DNA of 60,364 nt from a virus (lineage: Duplodnaviria; Caudoviricetes). Location: IMG/VR virus record IMGVR_UViG_3300043468_000417, positions 1 to 60,364 of that record, one strand, 5' to 3'. The translations under genes were made by a program, and so were the position numbers. How positions within the stretch are numbered: the first letter of the stretch is position 1; every line of letters starts with the position of its first letter. Positions 1 through 60,222 of this stretch are shown in pieces. The notes under the pieces are model-generated. The model was not told the DNA's origin and ran no database searches. It was given only the letters and a program-made list of their open reading frames with translations.

Positions 1-1
1 A

Positions 2-85
2 ATGTTAGTTTCAACAAATGAAATTACATCTTACATAATGAGATTCTATAATGGTCATTATGGATTACTAGATAATTTATTCTAG
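2..85 (+). CDS. Small hypothetical ORF, probably truncated by the window edge
   Basis: Open frame MLVSTNEITSYIMRFYNGHYGLLDNLF ending TAG at 83-85. Confidence 0.35.
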   Translation: MLVSTNEITSYIMRFYNGHYGLLDNLF

Positions 86-114
86 TTGACTAGAATATTA
101 TAATAGTATACAAT
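80..114 (+). promoter_or_regulatory. Sigma70-type promoter overlapped by palindrome TTCTAGT-TG-ACTAGAA
   Basis: TTGACT (86-91), 17-nt spacer, TACAAT (109-114); ATG 7 nt later. Confidence 0.65.
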
Positions 115-121
115 AGATACA

Positions 122-229
122 ATGGCTTCTCATAGAATTGTTATTTGTGATAAATGTAGGCGGGAAATAGAAGTAAGATCTGGATTTGCCCATATGACAC
201 TATTCAATCACCAAAAAACATGCAAGTAA
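122..229 (+). CDS. 35-aa C2HC zinc-finger-like microprotein (not in ORF track)
   Basis: MASHRIVICDKCRREIEVRSGFAHMTLFNHQKTCK: CxxC...HxxxC; directly behind a promoter. Confidence 0.6.
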   Translation: MASHRIVICDKCRREIEVRSGFAHMTLFNHQKTCK

Positions 230-303
230 TGATATACTGGATATAGAAAAAATATTTTATTAACATTTTGTTAATTATAAAATACTAGTCGACTAGGATA
301 TAT

Positions 304-510
304 ATGGCAGAGAATGAGAACACATCTTGTTTTACATACAAGGTTGAAATGATTATTCAAATATTAGCAGCAGATCAAGAAACAGCTCGTATGCAACTTG
401 ATGATAAGGGTGGATATGTAACATCACGAAAAGTTACATTCATGGATTCAGTACAAGTATATAAAGGCAATAAGTTAACTAAAAAAGATAAAGAAGCTTT
501 ACCTGATTAA
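304..510 (+). CDS. Hypothetical protein
   Basis: 68-aa ORF, AGGA upstream, preceded by CTAGTCGACTAG palindrome. Confidence 0.7.
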   Translation: MAENENTSCFTYKVEMIIQILAADQETARMQLDDKGGYVTSRKVTFMDSVQVYKGNKLTKKDKEALPD

Positions 511-594
511 TTAAAATTTAAAAAAGCGGGGACACTAAGAAATTCTCTTGCTATAATTAAGCTATATGAGACACTCTTATAGGTATTACCTAGG

Positions 595-879
595 ATGAAG
601 TCCGAAAAGCTCTCTATAGCCAAACAGAAGGCTCATTTGGCATCATATATCAGAGACCTTAAAGAAAAATCTCCTTGTAGAGACTGTGGGAAGTTTTATC
701 CATACTATGTCATGGATTTTGACCACGTCCGTGGCAAGAAGCATGCAAATGTAATGGAACTTATTCCCACATTGTCTAAGAAGAAGATAGATGAAGAAAT
801 AGCCAAATGTGAGATAGTATGTTCTAATTGTCATCGTATTAGGACTCATATGAGACGTATAGCTAAAAAGGGTAAATAA
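595..879 (+). CDS. HNH endonuclease (Zn-binding)
   Basis: CRDCG...MDFDH...CSNCHRIRT pattern. Confidence 0.85.
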   Translation: MKSEKLSIAKQKAHLASYIRDLKEKSPCRDCGKFYPYYVMDFDHVRGKKHANVMELIPTLSKKKIDEEIAKCEIVCSNCHRIRTHMRRIAKKGK

Positions 880-897
880 TATGTCTTCTCTTCCCGC

Positions 898-934
898 CGC
901 ACTTTTTTCGGGCGCACTTTTCAAATCGCACTTT
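898..934 (+). repeat. Three direct repeats CGCACTTT in a promoter region
   Basis: Copies at 898-905, 913-920, 927-934, then TATACT at 941-946 and ATG at 953. Confidence 0.75.
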
Positions 935-952
935 ATTTAGTATACTAGAATT

Positions 953-1612
953 ATGGATAAACCACACTATAACGTAATCATCGCCACCCCAGGAATGGAT
1001 ATGGACGGCGGGTACGTTAGATCGCTCACAGAGACTATCGCTGAGTTAAACAAGCGTAACATCAGTAATATATGGATAGGAGATCATTTTTCCATAGTAA
1101 ATCTAGCTAGAGAGTTTACCTTAGATGCGGGATACCTACTAGATAAAGACGAAATAGATTATTCAGCAAAGGGACCTATAAGAGATACTGTTACTTATGA
1201 TAAAATTTTTCTTATAGATTCCGACATATCTTGGACAACTGATCAGTTTTTAAAACTATACTATTCAGAAAAAGATATTGTTTCTGGTCTTTATATGACG
1301 GTTACTGGCCAACCAACGGTATATCCAAAGGATAAAGAATCTTTTGCAAAAAAGAACCTTGCGGTAGACGATGAGATCATTGAAGTCACTGGATTTGGAT
1401 TAGGTTTTGTTTGCGTTAAAAGTGGAGTATTTGAAAGTCTTGAAAGACCATGGTTTCAGTTTCTTTATACTGATAGATATTCCCCAACTCCAAAAACATT
1501 TATGATAGGAGAGGATATTTCATGGTGTATGCGTGTTTCAGAATTAGGATACATATTATATTCTGATTTAGGGGTTAAGGTTAAACACTGTAAAAAAATT
1601 TTTTTAGGATAG
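953..1612 (+). CDS. GT-A fold (GT2-like) glycosyltransferase
   Basis: IIATP start, IDSD DxD motif, GFGLGFVCVK, GEDISWC. Confidence 0.8.
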   Translation: MDKPHYNVIIATPGMDMDGGYVRSLTETIAELNKRNISNIWIGDHFSIVNLAREFTLDAGYLLDKDEIDYSAKGPIRDTVTYDKIFLIDSDISWTTDQFLKLYYSEKDIVSGLYMTVTGQPTVYPKDKESFAKKNLAVDDEIIEVTGFGLGFVCVKSGVFESLERPWFQFLYTDRYSPTPKTFMIGEDISWCMRVSELGYILYSDLGVKVKHCKKIFLG

Positions 1613-1617
1613 TTTTT

Positions 1618-1690
1618 TGGACCATAGCTCAGTTGGCAGAGCGTAGAGCTGTTAACTCTAATGTCCCAGGTTCGAGCCCTGGTGGTCCAG
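1618..1690 (+). tRNA. tRNA-Asn(GTT)
   Basis: Acceptor TGGACCA/TGGTCCA, anticodon arm TAGAG-CTGTTAA-CTCTA, GGTTCGA T-loop; no encoded CCA. Confidence 0.93.
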
Positions 1691-1694
1691 CTTA

Positions 1695-1768
1695 GCACCA
1701 GTAGCCAAGTTGGTTAAGGCCCCGAACTCATAATTCGGCTATCGTAGGTTCAAGTCCTGCCTGGTGTA
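1695..1768 (+). tRNA. tRNA with CAT anticodon (elongator Met or Ile2, not initiator)
   Basis: Acceptor GCACCAG/CTGGTGT, arm CCGAA-CTCATAA-TTCGG; lacks initiator C1:A72 and triple G-C features. Confidence 0.9.
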
Positions 1769-1772
1769 CTTA

Positions 1773-1846
1773 GCGACTATTGCATAGTGGTAGTGCGTAA
1801 CCTTGCCAAGGTTAATGTGCGAGTTCGATTCTCGCTAGTCGCTCCA
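1773..1846 (+). tRNA. tRNA-Gly(GCC)
   Basis: Acceptor GCGACTA/TAGTCGC, arm TAACC-TTGCCAA-GGTTA, ends TCCA (CCA encoded). Confidence 0.95.
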
Positions 1847-1847
1847 A

Positions 1848-1920
1848 ACCTCTGTAGTTCAGTGGAGAGAACAATGGACTTCTAAGCCATGTGTCGCAAG
1901 TTCGATTCTTGCCAGGGGTA
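1848..1920 (+). tRNA. tRNA-Arg(TCT)
   Basis: Acceptor ACCTCTG/CAGGGGT, loop CTTCTAA, GTTCGA T-loop. Confidence 0.9.
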
Positions 1921-1921
1921 C

Positions 1922-1964
1922 AAAAAGAAAAAATCCCATTCAGAGGCGGATCCGAATGGGTTTT
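1922..1964 (-). terminator. Intrinsic terminator, possibly bidirectional
   Basis: 10-bp stem followed by ATTTTTTCTTTTT on minus; short T-run on plus. Confidence 0.75.
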
Positions 1965-2024
1965 CCTAGTGTATTGCTACACATTATACTGGGAGCTTAA
2001 TCTGTGGGATGCTACAACCAGTAC
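1922..2024 (-). ncRNA. Candidate ~100-nt structured small RNA
   Basis: Own promoter, three hairpins (UACUGG/CCAGUA; GUGUA-GCAA-UACAC; CCCAUUCGGA-UCCGCC-UCUGAAUGGG) and U-tract; no convincing ORF. Confidence 0.6.
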
Positions 2025-2030
2025 ATAATT

Positions 2031-2059
2031 ATTATAAAATAACTATTGTTCTAAGTCAA
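2031..2059 (-). promoter_or_regulatory. Near-consensus sigma70 promoter
   Basis: Minus strand TTGACT (2059-2054), 17 nt, TATAAT (2036-2031). Confidence 0.8.
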
Positions 2060-2291
2060 TAGTGTCTTGCACAAAGTTTATATCAGTATTTGGTGTGTCT
2101 GGAACAAATGAGGGTGTAGGACCAAGCAGGTATCCTTGATTATGATATTCGACCATTTTGGAAGTATCTTCTGACCCCACTAATTTATTTGATATTAGGG
2201 TAAGTAGGTCATAAATTCTATGTAGCATAATGTAGTTGACCATTGGTAGATTATCTTCTAAATTCTGAGGTTGTTCTTTATTTTCCGTCAT
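2043..2291 (-). CDS. Hypothetical protein
   Basis: 82-aa ORF, last of a tightly packed minus-strand operon. Confidence 0.7.
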   Translation of the reverse strand: MTENKEQPQNLEDNLPMVNYIMLHRIYDLLTLISNKLVGSEDTSKMVEYHNQGYLLGPTPSFVPDTPNTDINFVQDTIDLEQ

Positions 2292-2394
2292 TTGGTCTAC
2301 CTAGATCTTCCCAAAACTTTTCCCGCCCCATGGCGTCAGTCTCTTTAATAGTGCCTCCGTCAGTTAGAATCGACGGCTGATTTAAGTTTTCCAT
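2278..2394 (-). CDS. 38-aa hypothetical protein (not in ORF track)
   Basis: MENLNQPSILTDGGTIKETDAMGREKFWEDLGRPNDGK fills the gap between neighbours. Confidence 0.5.
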   Translation of the reverse strand: MENLNQPSILTDGGTIKETDAMGREKFWEDLGRPNDGK

Positions 2395-2566
2395 AGTATT
2401 CCAATCCAACATCTTTTTTAAAGCTACAAGATAGGCAGTATAGATATATTATACCTTCGTTTGTTTCGTTGCACATTAAAGGGCCCTGATCCATAGGACA
2501 TTCAAGTCTAGGAACAAGGCCCTTCTCTGCTAGGAGCAGGTATTTAGACACATACTGTATCTTCAT
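2360..2566 (-). CDS. Small Zn-ribbon-like protein
   Basis: CPMD...CLSC; AAGGGTAGGT upstream. Confidence 0.7.
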   Translation of the reverse strand: MKIQYVSKYLLLAEKGLVPRLECPMDQGPLMCNETNEGIIYLYCLSCSFKKDVGLEYYGKLKSAVDSN

Positions 2567-2578
2567 ATACCTACCCTT

Positions 2579-3139
2579 CTAATTTTTGAATTCTATTAGG
2601 AATTCTTTATATCTTTCCCCATTTAGGGAAGACCATGATGACCAATCGGTTCCGCCCTTAGTCATATAATACGTTATCTCTGCATTTATTACTGGATCAA
2701 ATAATGTGATATTTGATTTTAATTCAAATTTTTCTTTACGATCTACGCCGAGGTTACCCAACATATTGATCTGAAAAATTCCATAGGAACTGTCTCCAGT
2801 TTTCCTGTTACCATTGTAAGCCATAGGCCTTGCATTGGATTCTGACTTAGCAATAGCCCAAGCCTGTTTAAGGGCTTTTCCTTCAAAGCCAACAGCTGAT
2901 AGAAGTTCTTTTAGTTCTCCGTCTGTTAGCGTCTCAGAAGGCTTGTACACAGTAGTGCTGTACTTCTCTAAGGTTTCTTTCTTTAGTTGTACTGTAGATT
3001 TCACAGGTGTTTCCACCTGCAATGCTTGAGTTATTGTTGGCCCAGGCTGGACAGTAAATAAGAATAATGTTATCATTCCTATATAAGACCAGTTATGAGC
3101 AACATCACTCAACCGTTGTTTTATATTCTCCATTGGCAT
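2579..3139 (-). CDS. Lysozyme-like lytic transglycosylase with N-terminal hydrophobic segment
   Basis: AIAKSES catalytic Glu, SYGIFQIN, WSSW; GGAGG RBS. Confidence 0.85.
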   Translation of the reverse strand: MPMENIKQRLSDVAHNWSYIGMITLFLFTVQPGPTITQALQVETPVKSTVQLKKETLEKYSTTVYKPSETLTDGELKELLSAVGFEGKALKQAWAIAKSESNARPMAYNGNRKTGDSSYGIFQINMLGNLGVDRKEKFELKSNITLFDPVINAEITYYMTKGGTDWSSWSSLNGERYKEFLIEFKN

Positions 3140-3166
3140 TTCCTCCTTTAGAGATAACGAACTATA

Positions 3167-3209
3167 ATAGTAGCATTACTTGACAGTAGGTGTCAAGCTA
3201 GTCAACCAG
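3167..3209. promoter_or_regulatory. Divergent promoter region
   Basis: TTGACA-N5-TGTCAA (3180-3196); minus strand TTGACA-N18-TACTAT with extended TG; CTAGTCAACCAG at 3198-3209. Confidence 0.6.
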
Positions 3210-3219
3210 AAAGATTAAA

Positions 3220-4203
3220 ATGGAAATATCATATTCTACGCCTAGATCCAACTTGACAACCAAGAATGGTTACGGTCACGCTGGATTTAAAGTAGCAGAA
3301 TGTCTAACTAAAATGGGTCATAGATTAACTTATCAGAACCCTAAAGCTAAATTACAAATTAATTTTTCACAACCTACAAATTATAAATTACATAGAAATC
3401 AATATCAGATTGGTTATACTCCATGGGAATCAACAGTTATTCCAGAATCTTGGAGAGAAAGAATAGATTCTTGTGACGAGTTTTGGACAACATCTCAATG
3501 GTGTAAAGATGTATATGAGAATAATGGATTTAAGGTATCTAATGTTTTCCCGCATGGCATAGATCCAATGTGGTCACCTAAAAAGCGAGAGTATACAAAT
3601 GTTGTAAAGTTCTTACATGTTGGCGAACCAGCAGAAAGAAAAGGCGGACAAGATACAGTAAACGCATTTATAAAAGCGTTTGGTAATAATCCTAATTATA
3701 CATTAACAATAAAGGCTCATAAGTCTAGCGTTCTAAGGGTATACGATAGAGAGGGAAGCATTCTTGGACTTCCCCACGAAATGTATAGTAATATTAAATT
3801 AGATGAAAGAGAATTAGAAGATAACGAGTTGGTAGACATGTATCATCAACATGATGTTATGATCTATCCTACTTATGGAGAAGGATTCGGATTCATTCCA
3901 TTTCAAGCACTTGCAACAGGCATGCCAGTTATATCAACATACGAATGGGCAGACTATAAAAAGTATCTAGGTCCTCTAAAGTTAAACTCTACACTTATAG
4001 ATTCTCCTTGGAATGTGATGCATCCTGGAAAAGTTTACAAGCCAGATAGCAATCATTTAGTTAATTTGATAGAAGATGCTGCAGCTAATTTTAAAGCATA
4101 CTCTGGATATTATTATGCTCAGTCAACTGAAATACATAAAGAATATAATTGGGATCAGTTGACTAATAAAGCTTTTGAAGAAGTATTTAAAAAAATATCA
4201 TAA
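3220..4203 (+). CDS. GT-B fold (GT4-like) glycosyltransferase
   Basis: GYGHAG, FLHVG...RKG, EGFGFIPFQALATGMPVI. Confidence 0.88.
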   Translation: MEISYSTPRSNLTTKNGYGHAGFKVAECLTKMGHRLTYQNPKAKLQINFSQPTNYKLHRNQYQIGYTPWESTVIPESWRERIDSCDEFWTTSQWCKDVYENNGFKVSNVFPHGIDPMWSPKKREYTNVVKFLHVGEPAERKGGQDTVNAFIKAFGNNPNYTLTIKAHKSSVLRVYDREGSILGLPHEMYSNIKLDERELEDNELVDMYHQHDVMIYPTYGEGFGFIPFQALATGMPVISTYEWADYKKYLGPLKLNSTLIDSPWNVMHPGKVYKPDSNHLVNLIEDAAANFKAYSGYYYAQSTEIHKEYNWDQLTNKAFEEVFKKIS

Positions 4204-4290
4204 CCCCTTCCCCTTTGGATTAAAGTTTGGTAGAATTGGACTTCAACTAAAATTATAAACCGCAAGGCGGAGAAAAGGTGTTATTTAAAA

Positions 4291-6225
4291 ATGTCAAGAA
4301 CTATTGAAAACCCATACGAAAACTTTATTGCATTGTCACGTTATGCAAGATGGATATCAGAAGATAACCGTCGTGAAACATGGGGTGAAACAGTAGATAG
4401 ATATTTTGATTTTATGACAGATCACCTAAACAAAAATCACTCATACGTGCCAGAGGAAAAACTTCTTAAAGAATTAAAGGATGCAGTTTATAATCGCAAT
4501 GTAATGCCATCAATGAGATCAGTGATGACTGCAGGTGCTGCATTAGATAGAGATCATGTTGCAGGCTATAACTGTTCATTTGTTCCAGTAGACTCACCAC
4601 GTTCATTTGATGAAACAATGTATATCTTGATGTGTGGAACAGGTGTTGGTTTCTCTGTAGAATACAAGTATGTTAATAAGCTTCCTGCCGTTCCAGAAGC
4701 ATTTGAAAAGTCTACAACCGTAATTGTTGTTGAAGATTCTAAGACTGGATGGGCAAAGGCTTATCGTGAACTACTTGCCATGTTATGGGCAGGACAGGTT
4801 CCAGCAATTGATGTAAGTAAACTACGTCCAGCAGGTGCACGTCTTAAGACAATGGGTGGTCGCTCATCAGGTCCACAACCATTAATTAATTTATTTGATT
4901 TTACAATTGCAAAGTTTAAAGTTGCAGCAGGTCGTCAGCTAAAGCCTATTGAGGCACACGATATTATGTGCAAAATTGGAGAAGTTGTAGTAGTTGGCGG
5001 AGTTCGTCGTTCTGCAATGATTTCACTTTCTAATATTAATGATATTGAAATGGCTCAGGCTAAATCAGGTAACTGGTGGGAAAACAATTCACAACGTGCT
5101 CTTTCAAATAACTCTGTTGCGTATTCTCGCAAACCAGAGATGGAACAGTTTATTGCAGAATGGAAATCACTATATGACTCAAAGTCTGGCGAACGTGGAA
5201 TCTACAATGTTGCAGCAGCCCAAAAGCAGGCAGCTAAATATGGACGAAGGGACCCTGAAGTACATTATGGAACCAACCCTTGTTCAGAAATTATTCTCCG
5301 TCCTTATCAGTTTTGTAATCTTTCAGAAGTCGTATTACGTGAAAAGGATACAAAGAAAGATATCGAAAGAAAAGTAGAGCTTGCTACAATTCTTGGTACA
5401 TGGCAAGCAACTTTAACAGACTTTAAGTATCTTCGTAAAATTTGGAAAGATAACACAGAAGAGGAACGCCTACTAGGAGTTTCTCTAACTGGACAATTTG
5501 GGCATAAGTTTATGTCGGGTAAAGAAGACCTAGTTTCTCTGGAAGCATTTCTAATGTCTTTAAGAGAAAAGGCAAGAGAAGTAAATACAGAAGAGGCTGG
5601 GAAAATTGGGATTCCACAGTCTGCCGCTATTACATGTGTAAAGCCTTCAGGCACAGTATCTCAATTGGTCGGGGTGTCTTCAGGAATGCATGCCTGGCAT
5701 TCTCCATATTATATTCGTACAGTTCGTGGTTCAAAGGGGGATCCAATCTCTACATTTTTGAAAGAAGTTGGAATTCCAGTAGAAGATGATGTAATGAAGC
5801 CAAATGACACATACGTCTTTTCGTTTCCAGTAAAAGCACCAGAAGGTGCAATTGTCAGAAATGATTTAACAGCAATTGAGCATTTAAATATTTGGCTAGT
5901 TTACCAACGTGCATGGTGTGAGCATAAGCCATCAATTACAGTTTCAGTTAAAGAAGATGAGTGGATGGAGGTTGGCGCTTGGGTATATAAGCATTTTGAT
6001 GAAGTATCAGGTATTTCATTCCTGCCACATTCAGATCACTCATATAAACAAGCTCCATACCAAGAAGTTTCTAAAGAAGAATATGAAAATCTGCTTTCTA
6101 AGATGCCTAAGAGCATTCGTTGGGAAGACTTATCTTTTTATGAAACAGAAGATGGTACAAGCGGAACACAGACCCTTGCCTGTACTTCAGATGGAAATTG
6201 TGAGATTGTAGACATTTCCGCTTAA
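4291..6225 (+). CDS. nrdJ: Class II adenosylcobalamin-dependent ribonucleotide reductase (monomeric RTPR type)
   Basis: YNC, GGVRRSA, GTNPCSE, FCNLSE, KPSGTVSQL, C-terminal ACTSDGNCE. Confidence 0.93.
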   Translation: MSRTIENPYENFIALSRYARWISEDNRRETWGETVDRYFDFMTDHLNKNHSYVPEEKLLKELKDAVYNRNVMPSMRSVMTAGAALDRDHVAGYNCSFVPVDSPRSFDETMYILMCGTGVGFSVEYKYVNKLPAVPEAFEKSTTVIVVEDSKTGWAKAYRELLAMLWAGQVPAIDVSKLRPAGARLKTMGGRSSGPQPLINLFDFTIAKFKVAAGRQLKPIEAHDIMCKIGEVVVVGGVRRSAMISLSNINDIEMAQAKSGNWWENNSQRALSNNSVAYSRKPEMEQFIAEWKSLYDSKSGERGIYNVAAAQKQAAKYGRRDPEVHYGTNPCSEIILRPYQFCNLSEVVLREKDTKKDIERKVELATILGTWQATLTDFKYLRKIWKDNTEEERLLGVSLTGQFGHKFMSGKEDLVSLEAFLMSLREKAREVNTEEAGKIGIPQSAAITCVKPSGTVSQLVGVSSGMHAWHSPYYIRTVRGSKGDPISTFLKEVGIPVEDDVMKPNDTYVFSFPVKAPEGAIVRNDLTAIEHLNIWLVYQRAWCEHKPSITVSVKEDEWMEVGAWVYKHFDEVSGISFLPHSDHSYKQAPYQEVSKEEYENLLSKMPKSIRWEDLSFYETEDGTSGTQTLACTSDGNCEIVDISA

Positions 6226-36329: not shown

Positions 36330-37101
36330 CGGAATGTTGGTTCAAGCAGCAAGCGGACTCGAAAGAATGATGTACGCAAATCAAAGCGGACCCTTAAAAG
36401 ATAGCACAGTAGCTCAGGTATCGGCATATGTGTATTATGAAGCAGCAGTATTGTCCAAGCTTACAACGAATGCTCAATTCAAGGCATTGTTTACAAAAAC
36501 AATATTTGATCAGATAAACTTAGACTTTGGAAATTATATAGATGCCTTGGCAAGGTCAAAACCTAAATCCTTGCATCATGTTTATGAATGGAAAAAAACT
36601 GGAAATAAGACCGCAAGACTTTTTAAATTAAATAAAATATCAGAAGACGGATTATCATTTAGACTAAACTACGAGTTTTTGCCATCAAGATCTATGGTTC
36701 CTGGTGCGAGTGGAAAACGTAGACATATGTTTGCAAACAAGGCTTCAGTTATGGAAGCAGGAAAACCTTTGGTTATTAGACCTAAAAATGCAGAGCGTTT
36801 AGTCTTTGAAATAGATGGAGAAACAGTGTTTATGCCTAAAGGCAAATCTGTAACAGTTAGACGACCTGGCGGGTCTGGCTCAACTAATCAATTTACTTTG
36901 GCTCACTCAAGATTTTTTAGCGGTAACTTAGTTAATGCTTCAATTAAAAACTCTGGGTTTCAAAGAATATTTAATTCGAGCATGAGCAAGGCGCTTAGAG
37001 TTCCTTCTAATATTAAAAAAGTTCAGTATTCTTTTTCACCAAATTTAATTAGATCTCAAGCAGATGCCGCATTGGCGGCTTCATTTGGAGGTGCAATGTG
37101 A
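36319..37101 (+). CDS. Neck/tail completion protein (TTG start)
   Basis: Synteny; basic 260-aa ORF. Confidence 0.5.
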   Translation: MDNSGMLVQAASGLERMMYANQSGPLKDSTVAQVSAYVYYEAAVLSKLTTNAQFKALFTKTIFDQINLDFGNYIDALARSKPKSLHHVYEWKKTGNKTARLFKLNKISEDGLSFRLNYEFLPSRSMVPGASGKRRHMFANKASVMEAGKPLVIRPKNAERLVFEIDGETVFMPKGKSVTVRRPGGSGSTNQFTLAHSRFFSGNLVNASIKNSGFQRIFNSSMSKALRVPSNIKKVQYSFSPNLIRSQADAALAASFGGAM

Positions 37102-37610
37102 CGGCTAACTATAAGCTAGATGCAATGCTAGAACTTCGTAAGTATCTATGGAAAGAACTTTATACTCGTAATATATTTGACGAAGAGGACTATTGGTCAG
37201 ATAATCTAAATGAGAATATTGTCCCAATTATCCCAGTTCAACAAGCAGCTGAAATGAATCAGTTCTTGAGCGGCAAAAAGCATATAGTCTACGACAAGAT
37301 AGGTATGTCCTACGAGGACAACTGGCTAATTTGCTGTGAGCAGATACTATTCACCATATACTCAACGTCTGTATCAGATATAAACGAGATTCGAAACTAT
37401 ATGACAGATGAATTTAGGAGAATGGACGAGTCTGCTAGAGATATAAATAAATGGACAGACCTATCAAATAAATTTAAATTTCATACTATTTGGGTAGCAG
37501 ATATCTCCCCAACGGCCCCTTCAGAAGAACTTCAAGGATTCTTTTCAGCAGAGGTCATATTAGAGGTCAAGTATTCAAGGATCACAGATTCGGTGGGTAG
37601 GTTCCTTTAG
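37098..37610 (+). CDS. Tail terminator-like protein
   Basis: Synteny immediately before the tail tube gene. Confidence 0.55.
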   Translation: MTANYKLDAMLELRKYLWKELYTRNIFDEEDYWSDNLNENIVPIIPVQQAAEMNQFLSGKKHIVYDKIGMSYEDNWLICCEQILFTIYSTSVSDINEIRNYMTDEFRRMDESARDINKWTDLSNKFKFHTIWVADISPTAPSEELQGFFSAEVILEVKYSRITDSVGRFL

Positions 37611-48326: not shown

Positions 48327-49561
48327 TGAGTAATCAAAGATCAATTCAAACATCATTATTTTCTTTAACAAATAATAGTACAAATCCAAATCAACATTCT
48401 GTTGCAATTAAAAACTCTGGAATATCAACTTCTTATTCATATTATGCATTTGGAACAGCAATGTTTTTCCCAGGAACAGTTAATGATGTTGTTAGTTCTG
48501 GAGGATTAGGATTTTTTACTAGCTCAAACGGAAATACTGGATACTACGTGTCGGTTCAAACTACTACTCATTTATCTGATACAGCAGATAAAGAAATAAA
48601 AATTTATAAAGTTGTTAACGGTAAAAAAACTATTTTAGCAGATAGCCAACAGACTCCTTCAAAAACACTAACTGGAGTTTTAGCTGGAACAGTATATAAA
48701 CTTGACGTTAACGTAATTGTTGAATCTACTTACGTTACAATTGATGCTTATGTAAATAGCTATAAAATAACGGCCACAGATAGTGTTTCTCCATTAAGCA
48801 AAACAAGCAACGTTGCAATGTTTGCAAATAGCGGAAAAGTTAATTACGATTACATATATGCTGCTCCAATAACCGAAGATCAATATAAAAGCGGAATTAT
48901 GCAAAATGTATATGAAGGTAAATATGGTCCAAAAACTCTTAGCTTTCTATATGGTGATAAAATTATTGAAAACAAGAACATATCTTCTGGGCAGTCTGCA
49001 TGGCTTGAAGAGTTTGGAACAACAGCCAGAGAACTAAAACAAATAAAAATTAAATATCAAGATCGACCAGCTGACCCGCTATTTGCCACAGTAGGTATAA
49101 ATAAACTAGCAAACATTTTAGGGCAAAGGCTGACCTCATTTGGAGCTGAGGTTTTTGTTTTGAATAATTCTGGAATGATGATACCATTAGCAGACGGCAA
49201 CCTTTATTCGTTTGCTGTAGTCGGAAACTCTATAACAATTTCTGGAGAGCATGAGTATAGCTCTAATACATTAAGTGATACAACCAACCCAGAACCAGTA
49301 GTTTTTGAGACAGCATGGATTCAAAGAGAAGACGATGCTAAAAACTTAGCAACATGGATACAGACCCAATGGTCAAAACAGCAGAGGGTTGTTGAAATGG
49401 AAATATTTAGTAACCCACTTATTTCGGTTGGAGATATCATAACTATTAATTATCCAAAAAATGATTTAGACGGAACTCAAAAATTTGTAGTAACCAGAGT
49501 AAACAATTCATTTAGAGAGGGACTAAATACTAGTATATCAGCACGTTCTATTTATAGCTGA
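48326..49561 (+). CDS. Tail tip protein (hub C-terminal-like)
   Basis: WIQREDDA...NPLISVGDIITI hub-type C-terminus. Confidence 0.6.
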   Translation: MSNQRSIQTSLFSLTNNSTNPNQHSVAIKNSGISTSYSYYAFGTAMFFPGTVNDVVSSGGLGFFTSSNGNTGYYVSVQTTTHLSDTADKEIKIYKVVNGKKTILADSQQTPSKTLTGVLAGTVYKLDVNVIVESTYVTIDAYVNSYKITATDSVSPLSKTSNVAMFANSGKVNYDYIYAAPITEDQYKSGIMQNVYEGKYGPKTLSFLYGDKIIENKNISSGQSAWLEEFGTTARELKQIKIKYQDRPADPLFATVGINKLANILGQRLTSFGAEVFVLNNSGMMIPLADGNLYSFAVVGNSITISGEHEYSSNTLSDTTNPEPVVFETAWIQREDDAKNLATWIQTQWSKQQRVVEMEIFSNPLISVGDIITINYPKNDLDGTQKFVVTRVNNSFREGLNTSISARSIYS

Positions 49562-49580
49562 TAAATGGTATAATAAAAAT

Positions 49581-49979
49581 ATGGCAACAAATAAAAAGGA
49601 ATCAACCACCTCCGTTGGAGTAGTAGCACCATTAACAGACTATGCCGATGGAATAACTACTTATTATTTGGCCCCCCACTTTGGAAGAAATTATCCAGTA
49701 AGAAGAGACGGGGATATGATATCCGTATCCCTAGAAGACGAGTCCTTTGTTGTGGCAGGAGATGATGGCCCAGATGGTCCAGATTCTATAGAAGACCCTA
49801 ATAATCCAGAAAAACCAGGGCTTGTCAGAAGATCTCCAACTCTTATGGACATAGAATTAATTTCTAATGAAGTTGTTTATGACGCTTTAAATAATCCAAC
49901 TGCAAAAGTTACTTTTAGAATTAGAAATTCAAGCGGGGAATCAGTAAAAGCAGTAAACGTTTTAGTGGAGAAAAAATGA
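49581..49979 (+). CDS. Hypothetical protein
   Basis: TGGTATAAT 6 nt upstream (leaderless). Confidence 0.6.
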   Translation: MATNKKESTTSVGVVAPLTDYADGITTYYLAPHFGRNYPVRRDGDMISVSLEDESFVVAGDDGPDGPDSIEDPNNPEKPGLVRRSPTLMDIELISNEVVYDALNNPTAKVTFRIRNSSGESVKAVNVLVEKK

Positions 49980-58671: not shown

Positions 58672-58981
58672 GAAACAGCCATATGTCCTTATCGGATTAT
58701 ACGAATTACTTTACTCAGAGAAGTATGGCAAAAAGCCAAGGCTTAACAAGTTTCGTGAAAAGTGGGCTATGCAGGACGTTATAGATAGCGTTGGATTTGA
58801 TAGAGCTAAAGATCTTTTGGTATACTATTTTAAAACCAATAAGTCTGGTCACCCACTTAGTTTCTTTTTCTATAACTTTGACAAGATTGATTACATAAAA
58901 TCAGAGCGTGAGAAAGATGAAAAGCATCGTCGATTGCTATTGCAAGCAACGAAAGAATTAGTAGAAGGCGGAAGCGAATGA
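58661..58981 (+). CDS. Hypothetical protein (helicase-adjacent, GTG start)
   Basis: Coupled to helicase. Confidence 0.6.
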   Translation: MANEKQPYVLIGLYELLYSEKYGKKPRLNKFREKWAMQDVIDSVGFDRAKDLLVYYFKTNKSGHPLSFFFYNFDKIDYIKSEREKDEKHRRLLLQATKELVEGGSE

Positions 58982-60222
58982 ATACAGAAGCAGAGTTGCT
59001 ATCAGCAGTATGCAAGAATAAAGATATAAGCACACTACTGGCAGATAATGTAGATGAGATTTTTACATCACATAAAGATATCTGGGATTCGCTTAAGGCA
59101 TATTATTATAAGTTTAAAGCTGTTCCAGAGGCTGGAATTCTTATGGAGCGTTTCAAAGACTTTGAGCCAGTTGAAACAAAGGCTGAGACTGGATACTATT
59201 TAGATAAGTTAAAGAATGAATACCTAACTAGTAGATTAAAGAATATTATTCTTCAAAGCGGATCTGCTTTAAAAGAAGATGCTGCAACCAGAGTACTCGG
59301 AGACCTGCAAGCAAAGCTTTCACAATTGTCTAAGTTTACAAATCATGTTCGTGACGTAGACATTACAGATATTGAATTAGCAGAGAAGCACTTTTTAGCG
59401 GTTAAAGAGCGCTCATCTATTATGGGTGGAGCCCCAGGAATTCTAACAGGGTTTGATGCTATTGATAAAGCATACCCTACAGGAATGGCTCCAGGACACC
59501 TCATCGTGGCTATTGGTTGGCCAGGACGTGGTAAGACATGGTTCACATCTTATCTTGCTTGTAAGGCTTGGGAGCAAGGATTTAAACCTATGATTGTATC
59601 TCTTGAAATGTCTCCAGAGAATATGCGTGATCGTATCTATACAATGATGGGCTCTGGTCTATTCCGTGCATCTGATTTTGCAAGAGGCGATGTTAACGTT
59701 GACACATTTAGATCTTGGGGTCAAAAAAGATTTGAAAATAAGAATGGTTTTATTTTAGTATCTAACGAAGGTATGGGTGAAGTTAATGCTAATACAGTTC
59801 AGGCTAAGATAGACCAGCATAAACCAGATTTAGTTATTCTAGATTATCATCAACTATTTTCAGATAACAAGAGAAGCACTGGTGCAACTGAGCGCAATAT
59901 GAACGTGTCTCGTGAATTTAAAATGCTTGCTATGACAAACAATATTCCAGTAATTGATATTACTGCAGCAACTATGGATGATATTACAGACCAAGATGCT
60001 CCTCCTATGCTATCTCAGGTAGCGTGGTCAAAGGCTATTGAATATGATGCAGACATGGCTATTGCTATTCATAAGTACACGGACACAAATATGATTGAAG
60101 TTGTTAGCAGAAAGAATCGTCATGGGCAGGAGTTCAACGTATTCTTAGATTGGGATATCAACAGGGGTATCATCAAAGAGATTTATGAAAACCCTTTTGC
60201 GAATGACGCATCGAAAAATTAA
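58978..60222 (+). CDS. dnaB: DnaB-like replicative helicase
   Basis: GWPGRGKT Walker A, SLEM, ILDY, IEYDAD, KNRHG. Confidence 0.95.
   Translation: MNTEAELLSAVCKNKDISTLLADNVDEIFTSHKDIWDSLKAYYYKFKAVPEAGILMERFKDFEPVETKAETGYYLDKLKNEYLTSRLKNIILQSGSALKEDAATRVLGDLQAKLSQLSKFTNHVRDVDITDIELAEKHFLAVKERSSIMGGAPGILTGFDAIDKAYPTGMAPGHLIVAIGWPGRGKTWFTSYLACKAWEQGFKPMIVSLEMSPENMRDRIYTMMGSGLFRASDFARGDVNVDTFRSWGQKRFENKNGFILVSNEGMGEVNANTVQAKIDQHKPDLVILDYHQLFSDNKRSTGATERNMNVSREFKMLAMTNNIPVIDITAATMDDITDQDAPPMLSQVAWSKAIEYDADMAIAIHKYTDTNMIEVVSRKNRHGQEFNVFLDWDINRGIIKEIYENPFANDASKN

Follow-up and report, generated by a model that had tools for sequence, protein, structure and literature searches.

A conserved gene for a structured RNA of about 99 nucleotides in phages of likely actinobacterial hosts, and its candidate message targets

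The window analysed here is a whole stretch of 60,364 nucleotides (nt) of tailed-phage DNA (Duplodnaviria; Caudoviricetes), positions 1 to 60,364 of the IMG/VR record IMGVR_UViG_3300043468_000417, and the element in question is a small RNA gene on its minus strand, with a predicted transcript from about position 2025 to about position 1927. Comparison with related phages indicates that this element is a conserved gene, organised independently and kept by hundreds of uncultured lake phages, and that its product is a structured RNA of about 99 nt; the RNA would be a new family within a known kind, the phage-encoded antisense regulators. The interpretation that we favour, and hold to be reasonably probable, is that of a stand-alone RNA gene whose product regulates phage messages in trans, as an antisense RNA, through two exposed segments.

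According to this proposal a strong housekeeping-sigma promoter would read the RNA, probably early in infection, and its own intrinsic terminator would end it; most likely, the RNA would then regulate messages of the phage itself, in trans and by antisense pairing. The first segment, seed 1 (GGUUGUAGCAUCCCAC), would pair with the first 12-16 nt of the message of orf75 and whiB, the WhiB partner of orf75 being a putative WhiB-type transcription factor. The second, seed 2 (the loop UCCGCC and its flanks), would pair with GGCGGA words in or beside the ribosome-binding sites of the genes for ribonucleotide reductase (RNR), DnaB, Pol III alpha and several small early proteins. The default effect would be hindered access of the ribosome, and for seed 1 a protection of the 5' end from decay would be equally possible. 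We infer the transcript ends, the timing, the pairing in the cell and the direction of the effect.

Anatomy and conservation of the RNA gene

An earlier note, made from the letters alone, had pointed to one of the best promoters of the window, overlapping the end of the open reading frame (ORF) 2043-2291 and facing a stretch with no convincing ORF, and to a transcript folding into a long hairpin with a CCCACA apex, a GCAA-tetraloop hairpin and a terminator with a UCCGCC loop. The promoter (2059..2031) and all three hairpins were located at the described places. The parts of the gene, followed by its two neighbours, are listed below.

2059..2054, minus strand: -35 hexamer TTGACT, inside the last codons of ORF82
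2036..2031, minus strand: -10 hexamer TATAAT, separated from the -35 by a 17-nt spacer
2025..1927, minus strand: the small RNA, about 99 nt, with the 5' end (about 2025) predicted from the promoter and the 3' end predicted from the terminator, within the U-tract 1934..1922
2024..1986, minus strand: hairpin H1, 39 nt, with the 7-bp helix P1 (GUACUGG/CCAGUAU), a conserved asymmetric internal loop, a short P1b and the apical loop AUCCCACAGAUUAA
2019..2004, minus strand: seed 1, GGUUGUAGCAUCCCAC, at the top of H1, with the nearly invariant core GUAGCAUCCCAC
1982..1969, minus strand: hairpin H2, GUGUA-GCAA-UACAC, free to vary in sequence
1960..1935, minus strand: hairpin H3, the intrinsic terminator stem CCCAUUCGGA...UCUGAAUGGG, 10 bp, with the loop UCCGCC
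1953..1943, minus strand: seed 2, the invariant block GGAUCCGCCUC, with the 6-nt loop UCCGCC at 1950..1945
1934..1922, minus strand: U-rich tail AUUUUUUCUUUUU
2291..2043, minus strand: ORF82, encoding an 82-aa two-helix protein, just upstream of the RNA on the same strand
1618..1921, plus strand: tRNA cluster (Asn, Met, Gly, Arg), converging on the RNA and stopping 5 nt from its tail

Read from about 2025, the element runs through H1, H2, an A-rich linker, H3 and the tail. The promoter TTGACT-N17-TATAAT has 11 of 12 consensus matches and is the best of 23 promoter-like sites in a scan of 1..6000; since the mean for shuffled sequence was 22.5, the number of sites is at chance and the promoter scan alone proves nothing. 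The terminator H3 has 10 pairs (5 of them G-C) and a 6-nt loop followed by ATTTTTTCTT, and it is the only one of three terminator-like sites in 1..6000 to fall inside the RNA element. The A-rich linker and the U-tract pair with each other and lengthen its stem, and the 3' tails of the relatives are U-rich and often interrupted. Folding of 2025..1927 placed CCCACA in the apex of H1 and gave a minimum free energy of -34.1 kcal/mol, against -21.1 +/- 3.2 in 200 shuffles (z = -4.0, none of the 200 as good). Because the sequence of H2 varies freely, with the loops GCAA, GUAA, GAAA, UUCG and CUUAGG among relatives, this hairpin is read as a structural spacer. A single sequence would be insufficient, and it is the conservation across relatives that raises the element above chance.

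More than 550 relatives of ORF82 were found in IMG/VR and 80 loci were retained, 72 of which contain the element at 70-100% identity (blastn). Seven of the eight loci free of it end within 620 nt of the ORF start, and one locus of the 80 (L069) has more than 1 kb downstream of ORF82 with the RNA absent. A pattern of two conserved words retrieved at least 117 further stretches, and the family is present in well over a hundred IMG/VR contigs. The covariance model R1 was built on an alignment (A1) of 51 sequences that had not been selected on the seed motifs. On the window it found one full-length copy only (114 bits, E ~1e-23), and it gave a single match in 99 of 100 sources (65-115 bits), the remaining source being a stretch of a bacterial metagenome-assembled genome (MAG) that had matched the pattern by chance. 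One copy of the RNA was found in each of five larger records out of five, and one single-copy record, of 103,695 bp with terminal repeats, is rated 100% complete.

The collection of homologues and a test of covariation had been proposed in the earlier note, and covariation was found. Pair counts were made on an alignment (A2) of 87 distinct rows fitted to R1, the same compensations being visible in a plain MAFFT alignment. Standard pairs make up 98.3% of the pair cells; column shuffles give 85.8%, none of 500 attaining the observed share, and the slid-register controls are 37-51% paired. On both sides of the helices, 16 of the 31 pairs change: 7 of 12 in H1, where 98% of the cells are paired, all 5 in H2, 2 of 4 in the linker/tail helix and 2 of 10 in the terminator. 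About 297 of the 2556 pair cells hold G-U pairs (summed from pair types), which would be A-C mismatches on the other strand; the minus strand is therefore the transcribed and functional one. The block GGAUCCGCCUC is invariant in all 51 rows of A1, GUAGCAUCCCA is at least 90% conserved there, and the most conserved bases include the asymmetric internal loop GG-UYGU-AGC of H1.

The element is non-coding, as had been suggested: loop lengths vary without a period of three, and the mini-frame AUG-UAC-UGG-UUG-UAG of the window is missing in most relatives. The proposed Rfam 15 scan, carried out on 1..6000 with E up to 10, returned the four tRNAs and chance matches only, and on 1915..2035 alone the best match reached 18.9 bits against a cut-off of 60. 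No Rfam 15 family, and no known cis element, is thus matched by the RNA element, and its structure is conserved. Together with the conserved promoter, the covarying hairpins and the variable downstream context, this supports the original suggestion of an independent small RNA of about 100 nt.

The promoter is retained in 107 of 107 distinct flanks, TTGACN being present in all. Among the 95 flanks caught by the script pattern, 93 have a 17-nt spacer and 2 an 18-nt one; the remaining 12 have GATACT after TGTG, with a spacer of 17 nt, read by eye. The -10 stops 5-6 nt ahead of helix P1, and the promoter is kept in each of three settings (overlapping the ORF82 end, within an intergenic gap, past an inserted ORF), the distance between ORF82 and the RNA ranging from overlap to about 1.5 kb. 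These data bear on the possibility that the element is a 3' end module of the ORF82 operon, namely a two-way terminator with message-protecting hairpins, the promoter being fortuitous and the RNA functionless. The element indeed always follows, on the same strand, the genes for a lysozyme-like membrane protein (89 of 94 distinct pattern-found loci), a zinc-ribbon protein (89) and ORF82 (92), and H3 is a terminator facing tRNA clusters in the window and at other loci. However, the promoter keeps its fixed distance from P1 even with an extra ORF or 200-1500 nt before it, a terminator needs neither an invariant loop nor an invariant 12-nt segment in another hairpin, and the plus strand has only TTTTCC after the stem, where the scan calls no terminator. 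An operon-end module is therefore regarded as very improbable.

What lies downstream of the RNA is varied (converging tRNAs, same-strand promoter-proximal ORFs or AGTGC-box repeats), so that the RNA is not tied to one downstream neighbour. A cis-acting leader, such as a riboswitch or attenuator with a terminator that controls read-through to the next same-strand gene, would agree with the 58 of 94 loci in which a same-strand ORF follows about 18 nt past the tail. Yet converging tRNAs come next in the window and at other loci, the following ORFs carry a GCGGTATAAT motif of their own, 6-8 nt ahead of the ATG, and reading of the alignments revealed no conserved alternative pairing that involves the terminator; of all the explanations weighed here, a leader is the least probable.

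Two conserved segments and their candidate messages

The target tests were made on the window and on eight fuller relatives taken whole; the first five genomes (G001-G005) show 77-86% identity over 41-56% of the window. In G002 and G003, positions -31..-20 relative to orf75 hold GTGGGATGCTAC, the exact 12-nt complement of the seed-1 core. The site of G001 and G005 is GTGGGATGCTGC, which gives a G-U wobble, and four further G-U pairs, read from the sequences, lengthen the duplex. The 75-aa orf75 overlaps the WhiB gene by 20 nt and is preceded by a promoter TTGACA-N17/18-TGTATAAT, the site making up the predicted first bases of the message. The 48 distinct orf75 upstreams (from 69 of 71 loci) include 21 with an intact GTGGGATGC, 5 in which it has lost one nucleotide and 1 with part of it; 15 have GGCGGA(C) in the loop of a small hairpin instead, and 6 have neither.

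Energy calculations placed orf75 as the top seed-1 target in all four genomes having it, at -23.6 kcal/mol against -13.8 to -17.3 for the next best gene; the gene mean was about -8.5 with a standard deviation of about 2.8, and in each genome none of 40 shuffled seeds was as good. Cofolding of the RNA with the leader gave a net gain of -8.6 and -11.6 kcal/mol after the opening of H1, H2 and H3 staying folded, a gain that none of 100 shuffled leaders matched, and the orf75 leader alone is predicted to be unstructured. The scoring of full-length duplexes was dominated by artefacts arising from the self-complementarity of the terminator and was replaced by seed scoring.

A distant clade (G006, G007, G008 and G010) retains the RNA, with R1 scores of 80.5, 73.6, 42 and 40 bits, respectively. 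In these RNAs CGGAUCCGCCUCYG is unchanged over a fully compensated stem, and the top of H1 differs and has no seed-1 motif; the orf75 leaders of the clade are without the seed-1 site, and in G006 and G007 AGGCGGAC stands there. Seed and site are thus both present in six records (G001, G002, G003, G005, G015 and a contig shared by L056/L244) and both absent in the four of the distant clade, with no discordant record; one more record combines the variant seed GACGCAUCCCAC with the target GUGGGAUGCUGU. This co-presence across clades is suggestive of pairing, in a manner that is not statistical.

The same data help to weigh a different function, in which the RNA would bind a protein or other factor as a decoy, scaffold or counter-defence RNA, and the complementarities to messages would be incidental. 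The asymmetric internal loop of H1, with its highly conserved bases, is typical of protein recognition sites, single seed-2 matches are not significant, and no compensatory changes of seed and target were seen. Such a function is nevertheless unlikely in our judgement, because a perfect 12-nt complement stands at the 5' end of one conserved early message and is an outlier in four genomes out of four, seed and site are lost together in the distant clade, and no partner protein is indicated, ORF82 being predicted to be a bare two-helix hairpin.

It was also considered that the 12-bp word common to the RNA gene and the promoter of orf75 might be a DNA operator through which one phage regulator shuts both early promoters. 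Both copies lie just past strong TTGAC-N17-TATAAT promoters; at orf75 the -10 lies within an inverted repeat, CCGYAG...CTRCGG, which shows covariation as DNA and shares positions with the copy of the word. However, the copies are in opposite orientation and at unequal distances from their promoters (about +11..+22 vs +2..+13). Moreover, 15 of the 21 distinct site-bearing upstreams read GCTGC against GTAGC (or a near variant) in the aligned RNAs, a difference that leaves a G-U pair in RNA and changes the base pair in DNA; the four further G-U pairs speak in the same direction, and the copy in the RNA gene is embedded in helices with RNA-type covariation. A shared operator is thus quite unlikely. 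The inverted repeat itself, which brackets the -10 and the message start of orf75-whiB (L228-L265, about 1135-1190) and covaries as T/A and C/G, looks like an operator, and in some phages its left arm GCCGTAGCATTTCC resembles seed 1 of the RNA.

For seed 2, the complementarity with GGCGGA words provides weaker support for pairing than that found for seed 1. In nine genomes GGCGG was found at -26..-3 of 50 of the 1183 called genes, against 28 for GGTGG, 19 for GGGGG and 3-13 for other G/C-only pentamers. The genes concerned are the following.

58966..58972, plus strand: candidate target AGGCGGA, 6-12 nt before the ATG of the DnaB-like helicase gene 58978..60222; GGCGG in 7 of 9 genomes
4257..4271, plus strand: candidate target, the leader hairpin ACCGCAAGGCGGA, 20-34 nt before the RNR ATG (4291); GGCGG in 8 of 8 genomes and GGCGGA in 81 of 83 distinct locus upstreams
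Pol III alpha gene: GGCGG in 4 of 8 genomes
Gene for a 76-aa membrane protein: GGCGG in 4 of 4 genomes, as AGAGGCGGAU, a 10-nt match abutting the ATG
Gene for a 138-aa protein: GGCGG in 4 of 4 genomes
Gene for a 134-aa protein: GGCGG in 3 of 3 genomes

The word occurs in five of six distinct promoters of the 76-aa gene, the sixth having GAGGAG. The RNR leader hairpin has the form CCGC-AAG-GCGG, and the two exceptions among the 83 upstreams keep the hairpin with other letters. A search of the window for AGAGGCGGATCC with up to two mismatches gave 6 matches against 1.4 expected; the five extra sites were discounted as coding words because they lie inside ORFs and because of the Gly-codon bias described below.

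Several observations weigh against antisense action through the two seeds. The shared presence or absence of seed 1 and its site was seen in two or three clades, hence in few independent events. No compensatory change of seed and target was found, the variant pair GACGCAUCCCAC and GUGGGAUGCUGU leaving a 9-bp core; an RNA with the deletion matching the 1-nt-deleted target gave no match in IMG/VR, where no contig has GTAGCACCCA together with the seed-2 block. The A/G variation of the target covaries with the upstream inverted repeat and not with the RNA. The window is without orf75-whiB and so has no seed-1 target; for this genome the main target is consequently deduced from relatives, the operon presumably sitting in the missing 44%. 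Other seed-1 matches in the window (up to two mismatches) are at chance, 3 against 3.1 expected, and a seed scan of its start regions was no better than shuffles (4/30; 7/40 and 5/40).

As to seed 2, GGCGGA is common on the coding strand through Gly codons (73 on the plus against 6 on the minus strand), the word before DnaB consists of the Gly-Gly codons ending the upstream ORF, the RNR word is the paired 3' arm of a hairpin, and the seed-2 energies were equalled by 4-8 of 40 shuffled seeds. Small shares of 1..4300 are contained in 24 RNA runs, and the data used here are assembled contigs from four lake libraries, which cannot show ends, strand or level. In one library (X1) contigs cover 1873..2016 at a summed depth of 110, against 8-17 over ORF82, and the depth of the same bin is 0 in two others (X2, X3) and 1.22 in the fourth (X4), values which, coming from contigs, are no proof of absence.

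It is tempting to speculate, as a tentative and rather unlikely extension, that GGCGG replaces GGAGG on early and replication genes, and that the RNA is a private anti-Shine-Dalgarno sequence gating a phage regulon, with the other arm controlling WhiB and with the whiB message having passed from one arm to the other between clades. With the matching change, GGAUCCGCCUC resembles GGAUCACCUCC, the 3' end of 16S rRNA.

Hosts, occurrence and genomic neighbourhood

The window record, of 60,364 bp, is rated 56% complete. In its portal protein it shares 58-60% identity with Streptomyces phages about 130 kb long, two annotated records of which were examined and belong to the family Stanwilliamsviridae, and outside IMG/VR homologues of ORF82 were found only in those Streptomyces phages (24 records). 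Two fuller RNA-carrying relatives encode WhiB, which in the control set matches only Corynebacterium. On account of this kinship of portal protein and ORF82, and of WhiB in the relatives, an actinobacterial host is likely.

Among cultured phages (50,697 records), blastn with 1922..2062 gave chance matches only (E >=0.4), and a 901-nt query gave tRNA matches only. The exact two-motif pattern had one match in 185,579 bacterial species genomes, the unstructured MAG stretch that is not matched by R1; diverged copies could escape such a pattern. In 86 Streptomyces phage records the stretch after the ORF82 homologue is conserved and contains hairpins; among the 60 rows listed it was found at two places per record in most and at one place in one. 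In this stretch (L198 3300-3460 and the 85 other records) the hairpins are GCCCG-UCU-CGGGC and GCCCCCUAGG...CCUAGGGGGC, with some compensated changes. The stretch was tried as a homologue of the RNA and was not called homologous, since R1 gave only 14.9 bits (E 0.03 in 12 kb) and both seeds are absent; a terminal-repeat border signal or an unrelated RNA may lie there.

ORF82 matches phrog_12271. It was considered as an RNA-binding partner and rejected: it has no Pfam family match, an Atlas search gave unnamed viral clusters only, and the AlphaFold2 model is a bare two-helix hairpin (predicted local distance difference test, pLDDT, 72), no fold search or complex prediction being made. Its residues 10-60 contain 36 invariant columns in 18 sequences, which is better kept than usual for small phage proteins, and its C-terminal extension in the window exists only because the frame continues through the -35 region of the RNA.

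Three spaced AAGTGC boxes followed by GGCGGGAAGAGAAGA occur on the minus strand of the window at 881-950. The same arrangement follows the RNA terminator in many relatives (e.g. L140, L114 and L186), and in five Streptomyces phages a TAGTGCGCCC box, TTGAC and GGGAAGGTTCC are invariant at the matching place. The boxes probably bind a conserved phage regulator as an array of sites, or function as a promoter element. In one RNA library contigs run across this region (865-1008) at a depth of 28. A free-standing HNH endonuclease ORF (595-879; phrog_3106, E 7e-22) lies beside the boxes, and an HNH endonuclease likewise follows the matching stretch in the Streptomyces phages.

Leaderless messages are common in actinobacteria. 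Many ORFs of the relatives, such as those next downstream of the RNA in L180, L129 and L118, have no ribosome-binding site and begin 6-8 nt past a GCGGTATAAT-like or TATACT -10; examples in the window are GGTATAAT-AAAAAT-ATG before ORF 49581 (49561-49583) and TATACT-AGAATT-ATG before ORF 953 (935-955). Such short-spaced starts appear to fit leaderless messages, as expected. In two lake RNA libraries contigs join 946 directly to the tRNA cluster (1618/1622/1694) and skip the 219-aa glycosyltransferase-like ORF 953-1612, so that relatives without this ORF exist. Elsewhere, in the structural block, a 170-aa ORF (37098-37610) has a marginal Pfam match to the endoribonuclease GhoS (22.5 bits, cut-off 21, E 1e-4).

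Significance and comparison with known systems

To our knowledge, phage regulatory RNAs are known mostly from a few enterobacterial models. The Rfam model of the 6C RNA, RF01066, gave no match in the one record searched, the window, and as a control it matches Corynebacterium glutamicum, under the family cut-off; RF01066 is absent among the weak matches on the RNA element, and the C4 family of Rfam is absent among the matches at E up to 10. A catalogue of covarying structured-RNA candidates from IMG/VR comprises 8,495 candidates, 1,241 of them with a predicted Rho-independent terminator (PMC10690425, Fremin, Bhatt and Kyrpides 2023). The present RNA may already be among its unnamed candidates; the passages of its main text that were consulted describe neither this RNA nor its promoter nor any target. 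In a full-text literature search no regulatory RNA was found described for phages of freshwater actinobacteria, and the catalogue in question may contain this one.

The family offers a clean gene anatomy, two near-invariant segments and concrete, testable target predictions, namely the leader of the phage whiB operon and a set of replication genes marked by GGCGGA. If these predictions are true, one small RNA would time both the takeover regulator and the replication genes of the phage in hosts without Hfq, and would constitute a compact, chaperone-independent pair of regulatory parts. The freshwater actinobacteria that probably host such phages are abundant and largely uncultured; the culturable Streptomyces phages, with their ORF82 and the conserved non-coding stretch, represent a laboratory route.

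The c4 antisense RNA of phages P1 and P7 is a phage-encoded structured RNA of less than 100 nt with two separate contact segments, and its short exposed loops are complementary to the ribosome-binding region of the phage's own message. The RNA described here is similar in these respects, its pairing being a predicted one. The c4 RNA is cut from the same transcript as its target, whereas the present RNA has its own promoter and terminator, and its candidate targets are tens of kb off, orf75 lying about 24 kb from the RNA in G002. Furthermore, the hosts of P1 and P7 are enterobacterial and those of the present phages probably actinobacterial.

The 6C small RNA of actinobacteria has loops with six cytosines, whereas the loops of the present RNA hold three to four. 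The C-rich loops of 6C bind G-rich stretches of messages, dnaB among them, without a chaperone, according to the account given in PMC6486639. The C-rich loops AUCCCAC and UCCGCC are present here and invariant, the complementary G-rich words were found by sequence alone, and the candidate targets include a DnaB-like helicase gene. Both RNAs would also share a setting of high-GC Gram-positive hosts without Hfq. Unlike 6C, which is host-encoded, this RNA is encoded by the phage, and one of its predicted contacts is a duplex of 12-16 nt. By analogy, the RNA would work most like c4 of P1/P7 and like 6C with its C-rich loops, and it is a member of neither family.

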